64,000 nt of DNA from Candidatus Obscuribacteraceae bacterium (GTDB taxonomy: Bacteria > Cyanobacteriota > Vampirovibrionia > Obscuribacterales > Obscuribacteraceae), in NCBI GenBank assembly GCA_044226015.1, contig JBGAHS010000008.1, positions 192,001-256,000 on the forward strand, written 5' to 3'. A program made the position numbers. Shown piece by piece: positions 1 to 60,000 of this stretch (the first letter of the stretch is position 1; each line of letters begins with the position of its first letter).

Positions 1-3000
1 AGTTGTGGGCGGTGACATCACAAATACTGGCGGAACGGGTTCAGTAGTGGTCGACTCTGCCACAGGCTCAGTAACAACAGCCAGAGTAGAAAGCCATGGC
101 GCGATCACACTGGGCAACACAAGCGGCGGCACTGGTGTCACCATCAACGGAGCAATCCTGAACACGGGCGGCTCTGGAAACATTCAACTTCTAGCCAACT
201 CAGGAGATATCTCCGGCTTACACACTCTAACGTCAGTCGGTGACCTCACCATTTCAAATATTAACGGCTCAATCGGTAGCACAACTGCAATCGGTAACTT
301 GTTTGGCGGTGGAGCTGGCAAGACCATCACGGTCAACGCAGGAAGCACAGGCAGAGTTGGCAGCATCACCAACGACAGCGCAAGCGGCAATGGTGGCACA
401 ATCACAGTCACCACAACTGCTGCCTTCCAATCGACCGGCGCTGTGAGCGCGCAGAGCACGGCCGGCAGTGCATTCAGCGGCGGTATCATCAGCATCAAGA
501 GCAGCTCAGGTACAGTTGAGGTCGACGGTTCCGTCAACAGCAACACAACCGGCACGGGCACTGCAGGTAGCATCAGCATCGATGCAGGAACAGGCACACT
601 CGAAATAAACAAAGGAAGCGCTGGCGCCAATGTCATTCAGGGAACGCTCAGCTCCGACAAGGGTAATGTCATTGTTCAGTCGAACAGCATTCTCTTGAGA
701 GGTGCTAGCCCAGCAATCACCGGACGCAACATCGGACTTAATGCACGCACCGGTGATATCCAGGCAGCAGTGGCTGGTCAGGGCGGTTTGAGCGCTACCA
801 ACAACATAGCGATGACTGCGGTGACAGGCATCGGTACTGTCGGCGGCAACCCAATAACCATCAGCTCTAGTGGCAGCACTCTGAGCTCAAAGACAAGCAG
901 CTCAGGTTCTACCTATATATCTGTAACTAGCGGCAACCTTACTGTCGGCAACGTTTCTGTCGGACCTGTTAACCCCAACACGGGCGTGCAGGCTCCTGGT
1001 TCTATTCAGATTGATGTACCGGGCAACCTCGCAATTCTCGATGGCTCGCCAATCAATACGACTGGTACAAGCCAGACCATCGACATTCACGCCAACAGCT
1101 TCACTGGCTCTGGCACAACAACAACCTTGATTGATGCTGGCAACACGGGCTCTGTCCTCATCGCTCCAACAACGAACGGACAAGCTATCGCACTGGGTGG
1201 CAGCGGCTACCTGAGCGGCACCATGCTATCCAAAATCAAGGCTCTCAACCTTCAGGTTGGTAACCTCGGCACTTACACCGGAAGCGTTACGCTCGCAGGA
1301 CTCATCAACAATGGCACGGCGGCTGCGGGTTCGACAGCTGGTTCTTACAACCTGTCGATTCTCAGCAATGGCACCATCGACACATCTGCGTTCACCATCA
1401 CTACCAATACAAGCAATCTGACGATCGATTCCGAAGAATCTACCAGCGGAACAGCAACCAAGGTTGGTGCCCTCATCGGCACTGGCGGAAATATCTCTGT
1501 CACTGGCAACAAGGGCGTCACACTTGCAGGCGTGATCAACAATGCTGGCACAGGCACCATCAGCGTACTTGCTAAGCAGGGCACGCTCGATGTTCAGAAC
1601 AACACAATCAGCACAACCGGCACGGGCACAGTCACCATCAACAACTTGAATGGTGCAATATCCAACGTCGGTTCTGTTTCAGGTGCCGGAGTGATCAATA
1701 TAGGTAATGCTAGCGGCACAACATCGATAAGCATAACCACCGGCACTATCGACAACACAGCTTCATCCACGAACTCCGCAGTCAACATTCTCAGCAGCGG
1801 AGCAATCAGCGCAGCGGGACGTAGCGTCAATTCTGACGGCGTCATCACACTGAGCGGCAACGGTGGAGTCACTATCGGTGGATTGAACAACTCAGGCTCT
1901 GGAGTTGCAAGTGCCATTCATGTCAACGATGGCACCGAAGGCGGTGCGGTATCAATCGGCGCAGTAAGCAGCGTCGGTTCAATCGCCATCGGCAACAACA
2001 GCAACACAGCTGGTGTCACCCTCACAAACGGGGCAATCGACAACAGCACAGCAAGCACACCGCAGTCGATTAGCATTCGCTCTAACACTGTTGGCATTTC
2101 TGGCAACGGACACAATGTCATTTCAACGGGAACCATCACTCTCAGCTCTAACTCAGGACCGGTCGTCATCGGTGCGCTCAATAACAGCGGCGTTGGCGCA
2201 AGTGGCGATATCTTCGTCAACTCCGGCAGTGAAACTGGTGCAATCACCGTTGATGCTATCAACAGTAGGGGAGACATCAATGTCGGCAACAGCACAGGCA
2301 CCGCTGGTGTAACCCTGACAGGTGTCATCAACAACTCTTCAGCAGCAAGCGCGAAGAATGTGACCATACTCGCTAACAACAGCGGTATCTCCGGTGCTGG
2401 TCAGACCGTCACCTCTATCGGCAACATCACTTTGAGAGCGCCAGGTGGAGTAAATATCGGAGCACTGAATAACTCTGGAGCATCGACTGCAGCTACCATC
2501 AATGTAAATGATGGAACACAGTCTGGCACAATCGCCGTAGCAGGAGCACTCAGCAGAGGCACAATCACGATCGGCAACAGCACTGGAACAAGCGGGGTCA
2601 CTATCAGCGGTGCTATCAGCAACGCGACGGCAGCAAGTGCACAGAGCGTTACTGTACACTCTGCATCTGGCGGCATCAGTGGTGCTGGACAAAGTATCAG
2701 TTCCATCGGCAGCATCGTCCTCGACGGAGTTGGCGGCGTAAACATCGGAGACCTGACCAACTCAAGCAGTACCACTGCAGCAGCAATTCAAGTCAACAAT
2801 GGAACTCAGAGTGGAGCGGTTGCAGTAGGCAACGTGAACAGCGTTGGCGCCATCAGTATTGGTAATAACACCGCCACAGCAGGAGTAACGCTGAACGGAA
2901 ACATCAGCAACGTAACAGCCTCTACACCGCAAAGTGTCAGCATTCTTTCTGACTCAGTGGGCATCAGCGGCGCTGGCAAGACGGTAAGCTCACTCGGCGG

Positions 3001-57000: not shown

Positions 57001-60000
57001 GTGGCACCAGTCCCAGCGGTCAAAGTAACATTTCCGCCGCTTGTCACGGCATTGCTCAAGTTAATGGCACCTGCGTTAGTGGCACCAACAGTGGGAAGAG
57101 CAGAAAGAACTCCGTTGGTTATCGTGGTGGTACCACCAACAAAGCTAGCATTGGGGGCAGCAGCTGCGATGGTCACATTTCCGGTGCCGCTAGTCGAAAT
57201 GACTCCTGTCCCCGAGATCCCCCCAGTACCGGTCAATATCAGAATATTGCCATTTACAGCGCTCACCGTTCCTGCCGCGAGATTTATAGAACCTGTCCCA
57301 TTAGCCAGCAATGTGACATTACCGCCGGCCACCGCGGACAGGTTCAAGCGGTTACCCGCAGTTCCGATACTACCGTTGCCAGCGCCCGTGATCGTCAAGG
57401 TCGCGGTCGTGTTACCAGCGGTGTTGTTAAAAATCACATTGTTAGACGAGCCAGGAGTCGCAGTAAACTGTAGCCCTGCTCCGATAAAGAGATTCGCACC
57501 AGCAAGTGTAGATATAGTGCGGGTGCCATTGTTGGTGACATTGCCAGACGCCACGATGGCGATATCACCAGCGACCCCGGTGAGACTACCGAATATGTTG
57601 ACTGCGCCACCATTGTTGTAGTACGTAGGGTCGCCTGTGAGCACCTGATCGCCGACAGTGAGCAACCCGTCAGTTACAGAAATATGCACTTCGGAGCCGT
57701 AATTACTCAAAGCTCCTCTGATTTCGTCCATGTGTATGTTCATGGATTTGCCCTGGACTTTAATGCCACCGTCAGCCAGGAGTCGACCGTCCATCATCAA
57801 GACATTGGCGCTCTCCAACTCAGAAGGAAGAAGGTTCGAGCGCACGTTCACAGTGCCTGCCTCGAAGAGTCCGGTCTCCGAATTGATGCCACCCAGAGCT
57901 TCGATGACACCAGCCTTGTTGCTTAGAAACAAATCTGTGCTGGCACTGAGAGCATTGAGGTTTATCGAATTTAGCGCCTGAATCAAACCAGAATTCACAA
58001 TTGTTCCGGTTCCAACATTCAAGTTGATGTTCTGAGCTGAGAGCACAGCCTGACTAACACTGCCACTTATGTTACTGAGGGAACCAAGCGTTGCAATATT
58101 CAGCGTGCCAGGCGTCGTAATCATTCCCTGATTGACGAGGTTGCCTGCGATATTCAAGTTCATGCCCGAGGAAGAATATACACCAGGCATCGAATAGCCA
58201 GAAGGCAGGTGGGCACTGAGTAGACCACCAATACCTATGTTGAGACTACCAAGATTGAGAACCGCAGCCATGTTGGCAGAGTTTTGCAAGGTGTACATAG
58301 AACCCAGGATGTTGAGTTCACCGCTAACATTCAATGGTGTCGACGAATTGAAACCGACGGCGTGAAGAGCAACTCCAGCAGGAATAGAAAGGGCTTCGAA
58401 ATTTTGGACATTCTTGGAATTGAGGGTGAAACTCCCACCAACTGCCGCTCCTTGATTGTTCAAAACGAGTGTCTGGTTACCGCGCATCGCTTCGAATACG
58501 GCGACATACTGCGAAGGAGTGACAGCCGCGCCCGGCATCACAGTCATTGTGGTACCACCAGATATGACACCGTTGTGAGCACTGCCACCGACCGTGATGT
58601 TCACCGGCGCAGTGTTTTGCGAGCTAAAACTCGCCGAAGTCCCCGACAAATTGAGATTGTTTCCGGTACCAGAAACCGTCCCGCCACTAGGAACCGAATA
58701 TGGTGTCGCTCCCGGACGAGACTGCGCTAATGTCTTGATGGGTGCTACGTAAGGCCCGATGAGTAGCATCGAAGACATTATCCACACCAACTTGTGCCCA
58801 AGACTGCGCTCTCCAAAAGCGGCAGCCTTAACTAAACGGGTTCTTTTCATGGGATACCTAAAAATTTGTCGACCAAATAATTATATGTAAAACATGCGAT
58901 TTTGGCTAGCAAACAGTTAGTTACGCCTTCCCCCAAAAGTTGCTATCTGAAGGTTTTTCCAGCCACTGTAGCCTATTGTCAACACACCCAAAAACTACCC
59001 CTCTAATAACAAAAGAAAAGCGCTGAACGCCCTAAGCATCCTTTAGAACACATCACCGAAGCCGAAATCCCACGTATTGCAAGGTCCCCGGGATTCTAAA
59101 ATATGTAATCCAGCCAACAAACCAGGCGTATTCCGCATAGACAATATCTAACAACAAAAACTGTTCGCAACAACAGCCTTCGGCGCTCTCTAATTCCGGA
59201 TTTGTGCGACTTTCATTCTGCTCGCCCATTCAGATGAGTTGCCCACCAATCTGCTTAAGTCTTTGCCTGAAAGCTCCAGAAGGGTGGTCACCAAACAAAC
59301 TCTTCGGCTAGATTCGATCTGCCAACCTACACACATCTACTTGAAGCAGCATCGCAGCTTACAAAGATGAATCAGGAGCTGTGCAGAAGCTGAGCGCAAA
59401 ATGTACCCATTTTGGTGCAACCTTATGTTGGAATTCCTGTGAAAAAAGTTGGGATTGTCCAGCGCATGGCTCTCGCTTTTCAGGATCAGGTGAAGTTATA
59501 ACTGGTCCGGCAAACGAAAATTTGCCCGAAAGCAATAGCCCCTCCTAGCCCAAAAGGTGGCTTATGTAATTCACGTTCTATTGCAGAAAACCAACTACGC
59601 ATAGAAAGTAATGCACATTGCCACCACAAACCGTGATGAAAATTTAGACAATAGTCCGAAAGCGCATAAGTTTCTTCGGTTTCGTGAAATTAGATTGTAG
59701 GATTGATTTATGAACTACAGCATGCCGAATTTCTCGGGCACGATTAGCGCACCGGCTGTTAATCTCAGGAAGTCGAATGAAACCAGAAATAATTGTGATT
59801 GGAGCATCGCTTGGAGGACTGATGGCATTGGAAGAGTTGCTCGCAAACCTTGATGCTACAATGAGCGTTCCAATAGCCATCGTGCAACATCGCTGTAAAA
59901 ATGAAGGACAAAATTTACTAGCAGCACTGCTCCAAAAACACACATCGCTGACTGTTGTGGAAGCTAAAGATGATGACGAGCTGCGGGGTGGCACAGTCTT

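Follow-up and report, generated by a model that had tools for sequence, protein, structure and literature searches.

Giant fibre-like proteins of the Obscuribacterales and a small outer-membrane barrel may together form a two-part system for export and anchoring, a reading to which we assign a probability of about 55%. In such a system, the fibre cargo would be threaded through the barrel and remain tethered in it, with its C-terminal domain (CTD) docked in the periplasm. The evidence supports a family of giant fibres, exported via Sec and specific to this lineage, that have a FecR-like CTD and no TpsB. Their missing partner is probably a 12-stranded outer-membrane barrel that is unnamed and has no POTRA domains. 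Dozens of such huge proteins, with a common tail that appears to dock on the barrel, suggest a hitherto undescribed means by which very large surface proteins are exported and anchored. If the barrel is the export pore, this would also account for the share of the genome, up to 7%, that a single protein family occupies in these non-photosynthetic relatives of cyanobacteria.

Giant fibre genes in the window and the genome

The window, a stretch of 64,000 nucleotides, contains two fibre ORFs of 14,391 and 10,968 aa that lie tail to tail (coordinates without a prefix are window positions, and those with a prefix such as C12: are contig positions). The first gene, g06029 (C12:174215-217390), enters the window with its 3' 8,461 codons (1..25390, + strand), and the second, g06031, is present as a whole (25944..58850, - strand). 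The window part of the longer protein consists of 53% G/S/T/N and the shorter protein of 52%, each with one Cys, and no Pfam family was found in the window part of the former or in the latter. The last ~2,000 aa of the 10,968-aa fibre are 39% identical to the 14,391-aa fibre. Directly 3' of the stop codon of the + strand gene, a G+C-rich, terminator-like inverted repeat (25413..25445) was read by eye. In a run belonging to a second study, contigs span positions 16000-35900 in several pieces with zero indels, and none of the 38 coding differences among those listed (40 of 57) makes a stop.

Both genes belong to a family which, as stated in the preliminary description, comprises 49 paralogues: among the 78 ORFs of at least 1500 aa, 49 group by their first 550 aa. 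They amount to 200,573 codons, or 7.35% of the genome (200,282 codons and 7.3% in that description, because the choice of start differs), and the longest ORF among genomes of the order has 25,007 aa. The CTD, thought to be common to all 49, groups 47 of them by the last 260 aa; the other two (C10:433155 and C10:420504) lack it and end in an acidic tail instead. An internal hydrophobic 19-mer occurs in one of the 49 fibres.

A signal peptide, also claimed previously, is recognised by a crude rule in 42 of the 49 fibres versus 5 of 29 other large ORFs, and by a stricter rule in 29 of 49. The translation of g06031 begins with a signal-peptide-like segment of ~42 aa followed by QSRPG (58725..58850, -), in a protein that fails the crude cleavage-site rule; RPG lies within the first 130 aa of 29/49 fibres. 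A conserved N-terminal domain of ~420 aa follows (57321..58670, -), with a beta-helix-like sequence pattern and no NPNG. It is common to all 49 fibres and present in 70/107 genomes of the order. The G/S/T/N-rich composition of the fibres is consistent with a beta-helix, and the predicted length of the two window fibres is about 180-340 nm, assuming 20-28 aa per 0.48-nm rung. An ADPP motif at 24443..24454 (+) is taken as the shaft end of the first fibre and precedes a low-complexity linker of ~120 aa, a candidate membrane-crossing tether; ADPP at 26913..26924 (-) likewise ends the second shaft ahead of a Ser/Ala/Pro-rich linker. Across 47 members, 18 have an ADP-type motif 86-161 aa ahead of the CTD, 17 have one of KPI type and 12 have neither. 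Shaft ends are of several types, and the N-terminal domain is the universally conserved part of the shaft.

The combination of a Sec signal and a conserved N-terminal beta-helix is the layout of TpsA proteins, and the N-terminus had been read as a TPS domain from fold matches. Sequence gives this assignment no support. NPNG, a conserved motif of the TPS domain according to the excerpted text of PMC5422565, is absent from the first 520 aa of 50 fibre N-termini, PF05860 (the Pfam TPS model) has zero matches in 28 members, and no PDB sequence matches the fibre N-terminus. The absence of TpsB was upheld within this 92%-complete genome, which yields 0 ShlB matches and a single Omp85 with three POTRA domains; this BamA adjoins apparent skp-lpxD-lpxC genes (gene names read by eye). 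Across the order, as had been noted, ShlB is weak, with 12 matches in 107 genomes and 6 above the cut-off; 11 of the 12 lie in frames of 689-769 aa, and the remaining one, on a small contig, in a frame of 328 aa. The model reached its cut-off in 0/14 control genomes, so its silence comes without a strong positive control. Conventional two-partner secretion, in which TpsB would be too diverged for detection or fall in the missing part of the assembly, could draw on that silence as well as on the TpsA layout and the fold matches. We consider it highly improbable, since the 107 genomes give only weak, mostly BamA-sized matches, the sole Omp85 sits beside the apparent skp-lpxD-lpxC genes, NPNG is lacking, and the gene found beside fibres encodes a different barrel.

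The FecR-like C-terminal domain

The CTD measures ~190 aa. In the first fibre (24767..25384, +), it was modelled by AF2 with pLDDT 87.8 as a FecR/CJM-like beta region (about 24806-25096), a beta hairpin and three helices (about 25208-25324). VIA-align gave Z 11.5 to 6ovm_R and 10.5 to 4m0h_A, with the next match at 3.9; the alignment to PupR covers residues 119-257 (124 residues, rmsd 2.9). The top four Foldseek rows are the same two proteins (6ovm, 4m0h; E 0.004-0.009), and weak sequence echoes reach PF04773 (E 0.013 and 0.057). Profile and alignment place the CTD of the second fibre at 25953..26570 (-), 50% identical to the first. A Lys, at 25298-25300 (+) in the first fibre, is invariant in 36/36 sequences and kept in 206/212 of a larger set.

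The earlier description of this domain as a FecR-like cap holds in part. The CJM beta-solenoid fold is shared with the FecR/PupR sigma regulators (PF04773, CCSSD), whereas other features of these regulators are lacking. A Gly-Thr self-cleavage site is typical of FoxR/FecR regulators, and the canonical FecR-domain proteins of this genome keep GT; at the aligned position of 212 CTD rows, GT stands in 30 and GS in 41, and both window proteins have KS. The fibres contain no transmembrane helix of the FecR/PupR kind and, by Pfam, no cytoplasmic anti-sigma domain. The STN subdomain (PupR 250-324), which PupR needs for transducer binding (PMC7186176), is absent from the CTD, and the model ends instead in three helices; this tail is unlike FecR and bears the surface that is predicted to bind.

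As previously observed, the CTD reaches beyond the fibres: a profile of it finds 61 proteins in all (65 with a core profile), stand-alone ones among them, and many CTD proteins have no fibre. In all of the best 150 of 2,751 matches, the domain lies at most 40 aa from the C-terminal end. In this genome and in 5/7 other genomes of the genus, it forms the predicted periplasmic portion of a hybrid histidine kinase in the inner membrane. The cap is most likely periplasmic in the fibres too, as had been proposed, because of this kinase layout and because the domain is predicted to bind the terminus side of the barrel. Type I cargo of the LapA kind carry an N-terminal periplasmic retention module that also resembles FecR domains; here, the domain is C-terminal, the cargo have Sec-like signals, and no NCBIfam retention-module match was obtained among 36 CTD sequences. 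The claimed lineage restriction stands with one exception: in one draw of 300 genomes (99 of the order, 201 of other orders), the CTD was found in 90/99 other genomes of the order and in 0/201 of other orders, while a deeper profile detected a single outside-order gene, in genome G152.

A 12-stranded barrel as candidate partner

The earlier description named no partner for the fibres, yet they seem not to lack one: a dedicated 12-stranded barrel goes along with the family in its distribution and in the position of its genes, and is predicted to bind it. The barrel is ~300 aa long, was modelled with 12 strands and terminal helices and without POTRA domains (AF2 pLDDT 87.3), and has no Pfam or NCBIfam match. 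Its fold neighbours are 12-stranded channels, namely small-molecule porins (Z 15.6-16.3), a COG4313 channel (16.3), FapF (14.6) and autotransporters (13-14.4), and the likeness of the model to such barrels is generic. This genome has helix-bearing copies at C11:696040 and C8:340215 and a helix-less one at C9:602851.

Among the 99 genomes of the order, barrel and CTD occur together in 88, neither in 8, the CTD alone in 2 and the barrel alone in 1, counts in which related genomes are not independent and linkage can give joint absence in incomplete assemblies. Four of the genomes with neither, of which two are 93-95% complete, are also devoid of the fibre N-domain and of any match to the deeper CTD profile. 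In the set of 107, a helix-bearing barrel accompanies the fibres in all 70 genomes that have them; another 13 possess only the barrel, and 24 lack both. Within three genera, at least two barrels are present in 12/12 fibre-bearing genomes and at most one in 14/14 fibre-less ones; fibre-less genomes retain one barrel and short CTD proteins. The barrel and the CTD family are genetically linked. At 80 loci chosen by barrel similarity alone, a family gene is found in 40 and abuts the barrel in 18 (11 of these being fibres); among 3,085 control genes of the present genome, itself rich in fibres, 1.5% show such adjacency. After collapse at 70% identity, 10/26 barrel clusters still abut a family gene, and a fibre gene adjoins the barrel at 11/41 clade II/III loci. 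Outside the order, a barrel was found only in G152, where it overlaps the sole CTD gene of that genome. None of the 49 fibre genes of the present genome has a barrel neighbour and the fibre-adjacent clade is absent from it, so that here we only infer the pairing of fibre and barrel.

Docking of the CTD on the barrel is predicted by a complex folded for the adjacent pair of one relative (L138), not for the window proteins, with a score of 0.69 versus 0.02 for the best control. Runs agree in at least 93% of contacts, with a partner pLDDT of at least 85; in the benchmark, 116/157 solved complexes and 2/215 mismatched pairs reach the mark used. The predicted interface joins the periplasmic C- and N-terminal helices on the terminus side of the barrel with the near-invariant Lys of the CTD, and its 17 CTD positions show no significant excess of conservation (0.435 vs 0.375 for the rest, p 0.12). 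Clade I barrels have no C-terminal helix, the main part of this interface.

Barrel and CTD might instead serve mainly as a FecR-like trans-envelope relay for signalling or solute uptake, with fibres that borrowed the CTD and either stay periplasmic or leave otherwise. The CTD in the hybrid kinase of 6 genomes of the genus fits such a relay, as do the FecR-CHASE2 kinase-regulator clusters flanking barrel and CTD genes in genome L147 and probably L115, the LuxR-type regulator next to barrel C11:696040, the single barrel kept with short CTD proteins in fibre-less genomes, and the solute porins that are the best fold matches of the barrel. We nevertheless judge it quite unlikely: within genera, the extra helix-bearing barrel arises exactly with the fibres, 11 of the clade II/III loci abut a fibre gene, the CTD is devoid of the STN subdomain, and fibres of 200-600 nm with diversified shafts would suit the surface better than the periplasm.

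Proposed export route and related systems

In the proposed two-part system, the cargo would comprise a Sec signal, the conserved N-terminal beta-helix, a variable G/S/T/N shaft, an unstructured linker and the CTD; the second part would be the POTRA-less barrel, encoded elsewhere in this genome and often beside a fibre gene in relatives. Sec would carry the fibre to the periplasm, as the signal-like N-termini suggest. The unfolded chain would then thread the barrel, a passage proposed by analogy, and adopt its beta-helical fold outside. The N-terminus would most likely lead, as in TpsA proteins, because no part of the shaft other than the N-terminal domain is conserved throughout the family. 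The CTD would fold in the periplasm, where its KxAA helix is predicted to pack on the C- and N-terminal helices of the barrel; as the domain exceeds a 12-strand lumen, export would stop and the linker would tether the fibre. Adhesion or a coat is the likely function of the fibres. We only tentatively go further and suggest a new secretion class, in which a POTRA-less, non-Omp85 12-stranded barrel would export and tether single-chain fibres of up to 25,000 residues, recognising any cargo by a portable, FecR-derived docking CTD that remains periplasmic, and in which the CTD of the kinase would sense barrel occupancy.

If the barrel is the export pore, it would represent a minimal two-gene outer-membrane route, distinct from Omp85-based two-partner secretion, autotransporters, T9SS and T11SS, for proteins that are among the longest in bacteria. 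The FecR (CJM) fold, which is common and of unclear role outside sigma regulators, would gain a concrete use in a barrel-docking module. The pair is small and tractable in E. coli, where the barrel of ~300 aa could be combined with either a stand-alone CTD protein of 220-400 aa or a one-operon fibre of 2,400 aa, and it might be used as a surface-display tag.

The barrel could also be an anchor only, as in a split autotransporter: the CTD docks on it and the passenger crosses via BamA during assembly of the barrel (C-terminus first, as a hairpin) or via another machine, while the barrel holds the tether. Its 12 strands are the type Va size, it lacks a POTRA domain that could capture a signal at the N-terminus, the sole predicted contact is at the cargo C-terminus, one BamA is present, and T9SS barrels beside type B CTD cargo are proposed as anchors in the excerpted text of PMC10202324. 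We hold this to be rather unlikely, as it is the N-terminal domain that is universally conserved and not the shaft ends, C-first export would require up to 25,007 residues to be kept unfolded in the periplasm, and TamB was looked for and not found. A reading in which the fibres leave by a general export machine, either a type II secretin or a TolC of type I, and the barrel link is incidental is very unlikely. The genome has two secretins and 31 OEP domain matches (many TolC-type proteins), and one secretin gene lies ~1.7 kb from a fibre gene, but on the opposite strand and outside any type II cluster. Sec signals are absent from type I cargo, RTX-like motifs are rare in the window fibres (3 and 1), and either route would leave the joint presence, adjacency and predicted docking unexplained. 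Type IX secretion is marked by the SprA/Sov translocon and an Ig-like CTD; SprA_N gave no match in this genome, nor in any control genome.

Returning to the export-pore reading, the system resembles two-partner secretion (type Vb; FhaB/FhaC, HMW1/HMW1B) in its giant cargo, probably Sec-exported and beta-helical, its conserved N-terminal domain and its separate, often adjacent barrel gene; some TpsA proteins, too, are kept attached through a small C-terminal domain in the periplasm (excerpted text of PMC5422565). It differs in that the barrel is 12-stranded and POTRA-less, whereas the cognate TpsB, not found here, is a 16-stranded Omp85 barrel with two POTRA domains, and in the lack of NPNG and the contact predicted via the CTD. 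With classical autotransporters (type Va), it shares a 12-stranded barrel, a probably beta-helical passenger and a linker expected in the pore; here, however, passenger and barrel are separate genes with a predicted non-covalent contact, one barrel seems to serve many cargoes, and the fibre ends in a FecR-like domain with helices rather than in a fused barrel. FapF, a 12-stranded stand-alone barrel passing unfolded Sec-exported chains (excerpted text of PMC5557850), and COG4313 match the barrel at a level with other 12-stranded porins, yet they share no sequence similarity with it, and the present cargo differ in being giant fibres, each a single chain equipped with a docking domain. In the excerpted text of PMC10202324, the T9SS type B cargo SprB is a giant adhesin whose uncleaved CTD pairs with an adjacent PorP/SprF barrel, a similar pairing with the product of a neighbouring gene; in our case, the CTD is FecR-like and its predicted docking is on the periplasmic terminus side, not on outer loops. 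T11SS (Slam/DUF560) likewise has a single outer-membrane barrel and cargo with a common C-terminal domain encoded near the barrel gene (excerpted text of PMC12282271), but its cargo end in an 8-stranded beta-barrel, whereas the present cargo end in a FecR-like CTD and reach 25,000 aa, and the barrel, with its 12 predicted strands, matches no Pfam family (no DUF560). Look-alike clusters of the barrel in the Atlas are BBP2- and Slam-like, and one with PF04575 (44% of members, rank 22) serves only as a lead.

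The giant fibre genes and their family

Two giant open reading frames (ORFs) lie tail to tail in the window (contig C12:192001–256000). One, of 14,391 aa, is present with its 3′ part only, read on the plus strand up to position 25390; the other, a complete 10,968-aa ORF, is on the minus strand (25944–58850). Glycine, serine, threonine and asparagine make up 52–53% of both products, each of which contains a single cysteine; aligned over the final ~2,000 aa, the two share 39% identity. Self-BLAST of the two shafts revealed no high-scoring internal repeat, with weak periodicity, and Pfam, NCBIfam and PDB sequence searches with shafts gave nothing usable. 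Under simple rung assumptions, these fibres would be roughly 180–340 nm long. Run contigs of a second study span window positions 16000–35900 piecewise and without indels; among the differences listed (40 of 57 in total), 38 are coding, including 21 synonymous and 17 residue-changing ones and no stops. The differences from this second strain are concentrated in 20585–24253, with 17 of them within 21961–22441, which suggests that this part of the shaft has recombined or changes fast. Between the two fibre genes is an ORF of 112 aa (25513–25851, minus strand) that matches no family, and upstream of the second are genes for a CheB methylesterase (59777–60334, plus), a Ser/Thr kinase (60907–63099, minus) and a metallophosphoesterase (63336–63932, plus); no link between the fibres and any of these genes of the window was seen.

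The source genome (8.19 Mb, 92% complete) contains 78 ORFs of at least 1500 aa, 49 of which cluster by their N-terminus and 47 by their C-terminus. The family counts of the preliminary description were reproduced, as the 49 members comprise 200,573 codons, or 7.35% of the genome. A crude signal-peptide rule was passed by 42 of the 49 fibres versus 5 of 29 other large ORFs. The FecR-like C-terminal domain (CTD), previously ascribed to all members, is carried by 47 of them, but two end in an acidic tail instead. These two fibres, whose genes are divergently placed (C10:420504–429701 and C10:433155–442265), in which the tail comes after a KPI-type motif, are possibly released or partner-dependent forms. 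An 8,062-aa member (C10:380473–404661) contains 79 cysteines, far above any other member, and has no Pfam match. Further ORFs of 1,500–7,750 aa without a signal peptide start with acidic or lysine-rich leaders, form small separate clusters and are unrelated to the fibre family.

The two ends of the fibres and the search for an exporter

An N-terminal domain of ~420 aa (N-domain) is kept in every fibre member. Its proposed identity as a two-partner secretion (TPS) domain was not borne out at the sequence level: the NPNG motif, described for TpsA as highly conserved and crucial (PMC5422565), is absent from the N-termini of the 50 proteins examined, the Pfam TPS model gave no match, and a profile of the domain found no sequence match among solved structures. 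The sole family hit in Pfam, NCBIfam and PDB sequence searches was Fil_haemagg (E 6e-4), in 2 of 28 members.

The reported absence of a TpsB partner stood, since ShlB has no match in this 92%-complete genome and its single Omp85 has three POTRA domains, although the ShlB model, which reached its cut-off in no control genome, is silent here without a strong control. A set of 107 genomes of the order Obscuribacterales yielded only weak ShlB matches, 12 in all, of which 11 are in frames of 689–769 aa. The proposed system would resemble two-partner secretion in its separate genes, N-terminal folding domain and periplasmic tether; an ordinary system of this kind with a missed TpsB is nevertheless highly improbable. 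TamB was not found, nor was SprA in a search that had no positive control. Two secretins and many TolC-type genes are encoded in the genome, and no recurring transporter was seen among the neighbours of 50 family genes here. We regard export via a secretin or TolC route as very unlikely. A home-made beta-barrel score applied across the proteome was dropped because it missed BamA.

The CTD was modelled with nine strands, a hairpin and three helices (pLDDT 87.8). Clear structural likeness is limited to PupR (Z 11.5 over 124 residues, with an rmsd of 2.9) and BDI_1681 (Z 10.5), the score then dropping to 3.9. The matched stretch of PupR, 119–257, covers the CJM subdomain (110–238) but not the STN subdomain (250–324), and the likeness to FecR/PupR noted in the preliminary description is confined accordingly. 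Transducer binding by PupR is described as requiring both subdomains (PMC7186176). FecR cleaves itself at a GT site; a corresponding self-cleavage of the CTD was rejected, as the aligned position reads GT in only 30 of 212 sequences (GS in 41; KS in both window proteins). Pfam, NCBIfam and PDB sequence searches returned nothing usable for the CTD, and the recognition value of its Atlas look-alikes was under the reliable range. A low-complexity linker, 86–161 aa long in 18 members with an ADP-type shaft end, lies between the shaft and the CTD.

The CTD is present in 65 proteins of this genome, which include fibres, signal-plus-CTD proteins, proteins with two FecR-like repeats, Pro- or Asn-rich proteins and a hybrid histidine kinase. 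Asn-rich or Ser/Thr/Pro repeats replace the beta-helix shaft in the CTD proteins at C4:407760–412636 and C11:156596–160273; the pair of CTD genes on C4, near a contig end, may represent a single gene that is split or misassembled. Public data contain 2,751 clusters (50% identity) that match the CTD, and in all of the best 150 of these it lies no more than 40 aa from the C-terminal end. The first profile detected the CTD in 90 of 99 other order genomes and in none of 201 genomes of other orders; its supposed confinement to the order holds at that level, but not for a diverged CTD gene in one outside genome (G152).

An unnamed 12-stranded barrel linked to the family

In a related genome with few CTD genes (G080), the gene of an unnamed signal-bearing protein begins 3 nt after one of them. 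Three paralogues are encoded in the source genome, at C11:696040, C8:340215 and C9:602851, the last of which has a short CTD gene 3.5 kb away. This protein has no match in Pfam, NCBIfam or PDB sequence searches, its named homologues are titled ‘hypothetical protein’, and its Atlas look-alikes are BBP2- and Slam-like. AF2 predicts a barrel of 12 strands, preceded and followed in the chain by one helix each (pLDDT 87.3). The nearest folds, all 12-stranded, are COG4313 (Z 16.3), KdgM/NanC-type porins (15.6–16.1), FapF (14.6) and autotransporters (13–14.4), and these matches do not distinguish between solute porins and peptide pores.

The barrels fall into three clades, of which I lacks the C-terminal helix, and II and III bear it. 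The source genome yielded no clade III barrel and its fibre genes stand without a barrel neighbour; its two clade II barrels are therefore presumed to be the partners. One of the paralogues (C8:340215–343508) has a ~700-aa Ala/Lys/Pro-rich C-terminal extension, which occurs in several genomes of the genus and could span the periplasm. Clade I barrels form a conserved trio with a TPR-CHAT protein and a Pro-rich short CTD protein (C9:602851–608472 and retrieved loci L076–L114), kept even in fibre-less genomes. A PTD(V/I)T motif is common to the N-terminal arms of clade II/III barrels and to short Pro-rich CTD proteins, and in the barrel arm it could act as a cargo-mimicking self-plug; as a shared fibre feature near the CTD it was rejected (7 of 60 proteins).

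Barrel and CTD were found to occur together. In one draw of 300 genomes (99 of the order, 201 others), the order genomes contain both in 88 cases, neither in 8, the CTD alone in 2 and the barrel alone in 1 (Fisher p 2e-9, which is overstated because related genomes are not independent). Four genomes lacking both, rechecked with deeper profiles, lack the fibre N-domain as well. The sole barrel outside the order (1 of 201) overlaps the only CTD gene of G152, which encodes the diverged signal-plus-CTD protein missed by the first profile. That locus (L178:1–2979, on G152:C4) is an operon of a short-repeat protein, the stand-alone signal-plus-CTD gene and the barrel, and passenger and docking domain may be encoded there as separate genes. 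Another 250 genomes of the phylum, searched in addition, yielded no barrel. Joint-loss controls with two other outer-membrane proteins (0/5 and 1/5) were too patchy to inform. At a calibrated threshold, the helix-bearing barrel is present in 83 of 107 order genomes and the N-domain in 70, all of which fall within the 83, leaving 13 with the barrel only and 24 with neither. In three mixed genera, with genome G303 excluded, 12 fibre-bearing genomes have at least two barrels and 14 fibre-less ones at most one.

The linkage extends to gene position. Among loci picked solely by barrel similarity, mainly titled as Obscuribacterales/Melainabacteria assemblies, 80 of 110 were confirmed; 40 of these contain a family gene, which adjoins the barrel gene in 18, in 11 of them as a fibre gene, arranged in tandem or head to head. 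By comparison, 1.5% of control genes (47/3,085) adjoin a family gene in the fibre-rich source genome and 12.9% lie within 9.5 kb of one. Collapsing the barrels at 70% identity leaves 26 clusters, 10 of which still adjoin a family gene. These adjacency counts are lower bounds because contig ends break off many loci, and twenty extra regions, partly selected for known adjacency, were left out.

Predicted docking and a proposed export route

A complex was modelled for a tandem pair (L138) consisting of the CTD of a 2,444-aa fibre and the barrel encoded behind the fibre gene. It scored 0.69 versus 0.02 for the best control, with at least 93% of contacts agreeing between runs and partner pLDDT of at least 85; of 157 solved complexes 116 reach the score mark, as do 2 of 215 mismatched pairs, counts that are only approximate for the alignments used here. 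No similar complex was found in searches. The predicted interface involves the C-terminal (278–295) and N-terminal (23–35) helices of the barrel and CTD helices 154–168 and 179–192, including Lys183, the most conserved CTD residue (206/212); conservation of its 17 positions as a set is not significantly above that of the other positions (p 0.12). In such barrels, the side bearing the termini and short turns faces the periplasm, and since the model places both on one side, that side would be periplasmic. Clade I barrels lack the C-terminal helix of this interface, and the CTDs adjoining them bear a distinct MSKMAA-type helix, a sequence pattern that would fit co-adaptation.

We put at a little over one half the probability that the fibre, exported by Sec, is threaded through the barrel and held with its CTD docked in the periplasm and its linker in the pore. 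Sec would bring the fibre into the periplasm, from which the unfolded chain would pass through the barrel, probably N-terminus first, and on the outside the N-domain would nucleate folding of the beta-helix, a mechanism proposed for TpsA. Folding in the periplasm, the CTD would dock on the barrel helices, and as it would exceed the 12-strand lumen, export would end with the linker in the pore. Within this scheme the family, its folds, the joint distribution and the gene linkage are established here and the docking is predicted, while we infer the passage through the pore and its direction, as well as a surface location and an adhesive function. A 12-stranded pore would recall autotransporters and FapF, which is described as able to pass unfolded chains (PMC5557850). 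A BamA-assisted, C-first ‘split autotransporter’, or a barrel serving as an anchor only, is a possible but doubtful alternative to threading through the pore.

The threading route would also recall other systems, with a fibre–barrel pairing like that of SprB/SprF in T9SS (PMC10202324) and a role of the CTD like C-terminal targeting in T11SS (PMC12282271), as these sources describe them. The family was not assigned to TpsA/TpsB, type Va, T11SS or the FecR regulators, as it lacks defining features of each. A literature search, with most subscription journals outside its scope, found no description of the fibre family or the barrel; Obscuribacter, Melainabacteria and FecR have no occurrences in the main text of two giant-protein surveys, the supplements of which may list such proteins.

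A barrel–CTD pair acting mainly as a signalling or uptake module is favoured by the CTD–kinase fusion and by FecR-CHASE2 clusters adjoining barrel/CTD genes, and we consider it unlikely. In the hybrid histidine kinase (C6:296935–300378, L010:4936–8379), the CTD (aa 266–440) lies between the signal and the sole transmembrane helix, and is therefore periplasmic at least in this protein, which also contains a low-complexity linker and HisKA-HATPase-receiver domains. Of seven other genomes in the genus, five encode the fusion as well, and a role of the kinase in sensing the barrel from across the periplasm is possible. Canonical FecR-domain genes with the GT kept were also observed upstream of CHASE2-type kinases and response regulators at C1:1005681–1009574 and C7:691947–696642, and at L147:4141–8172 a cluster of a canonical FecR (GT kept), a CHASE2 kinase and a response regulator adjoins a CTD gene and a barrel.
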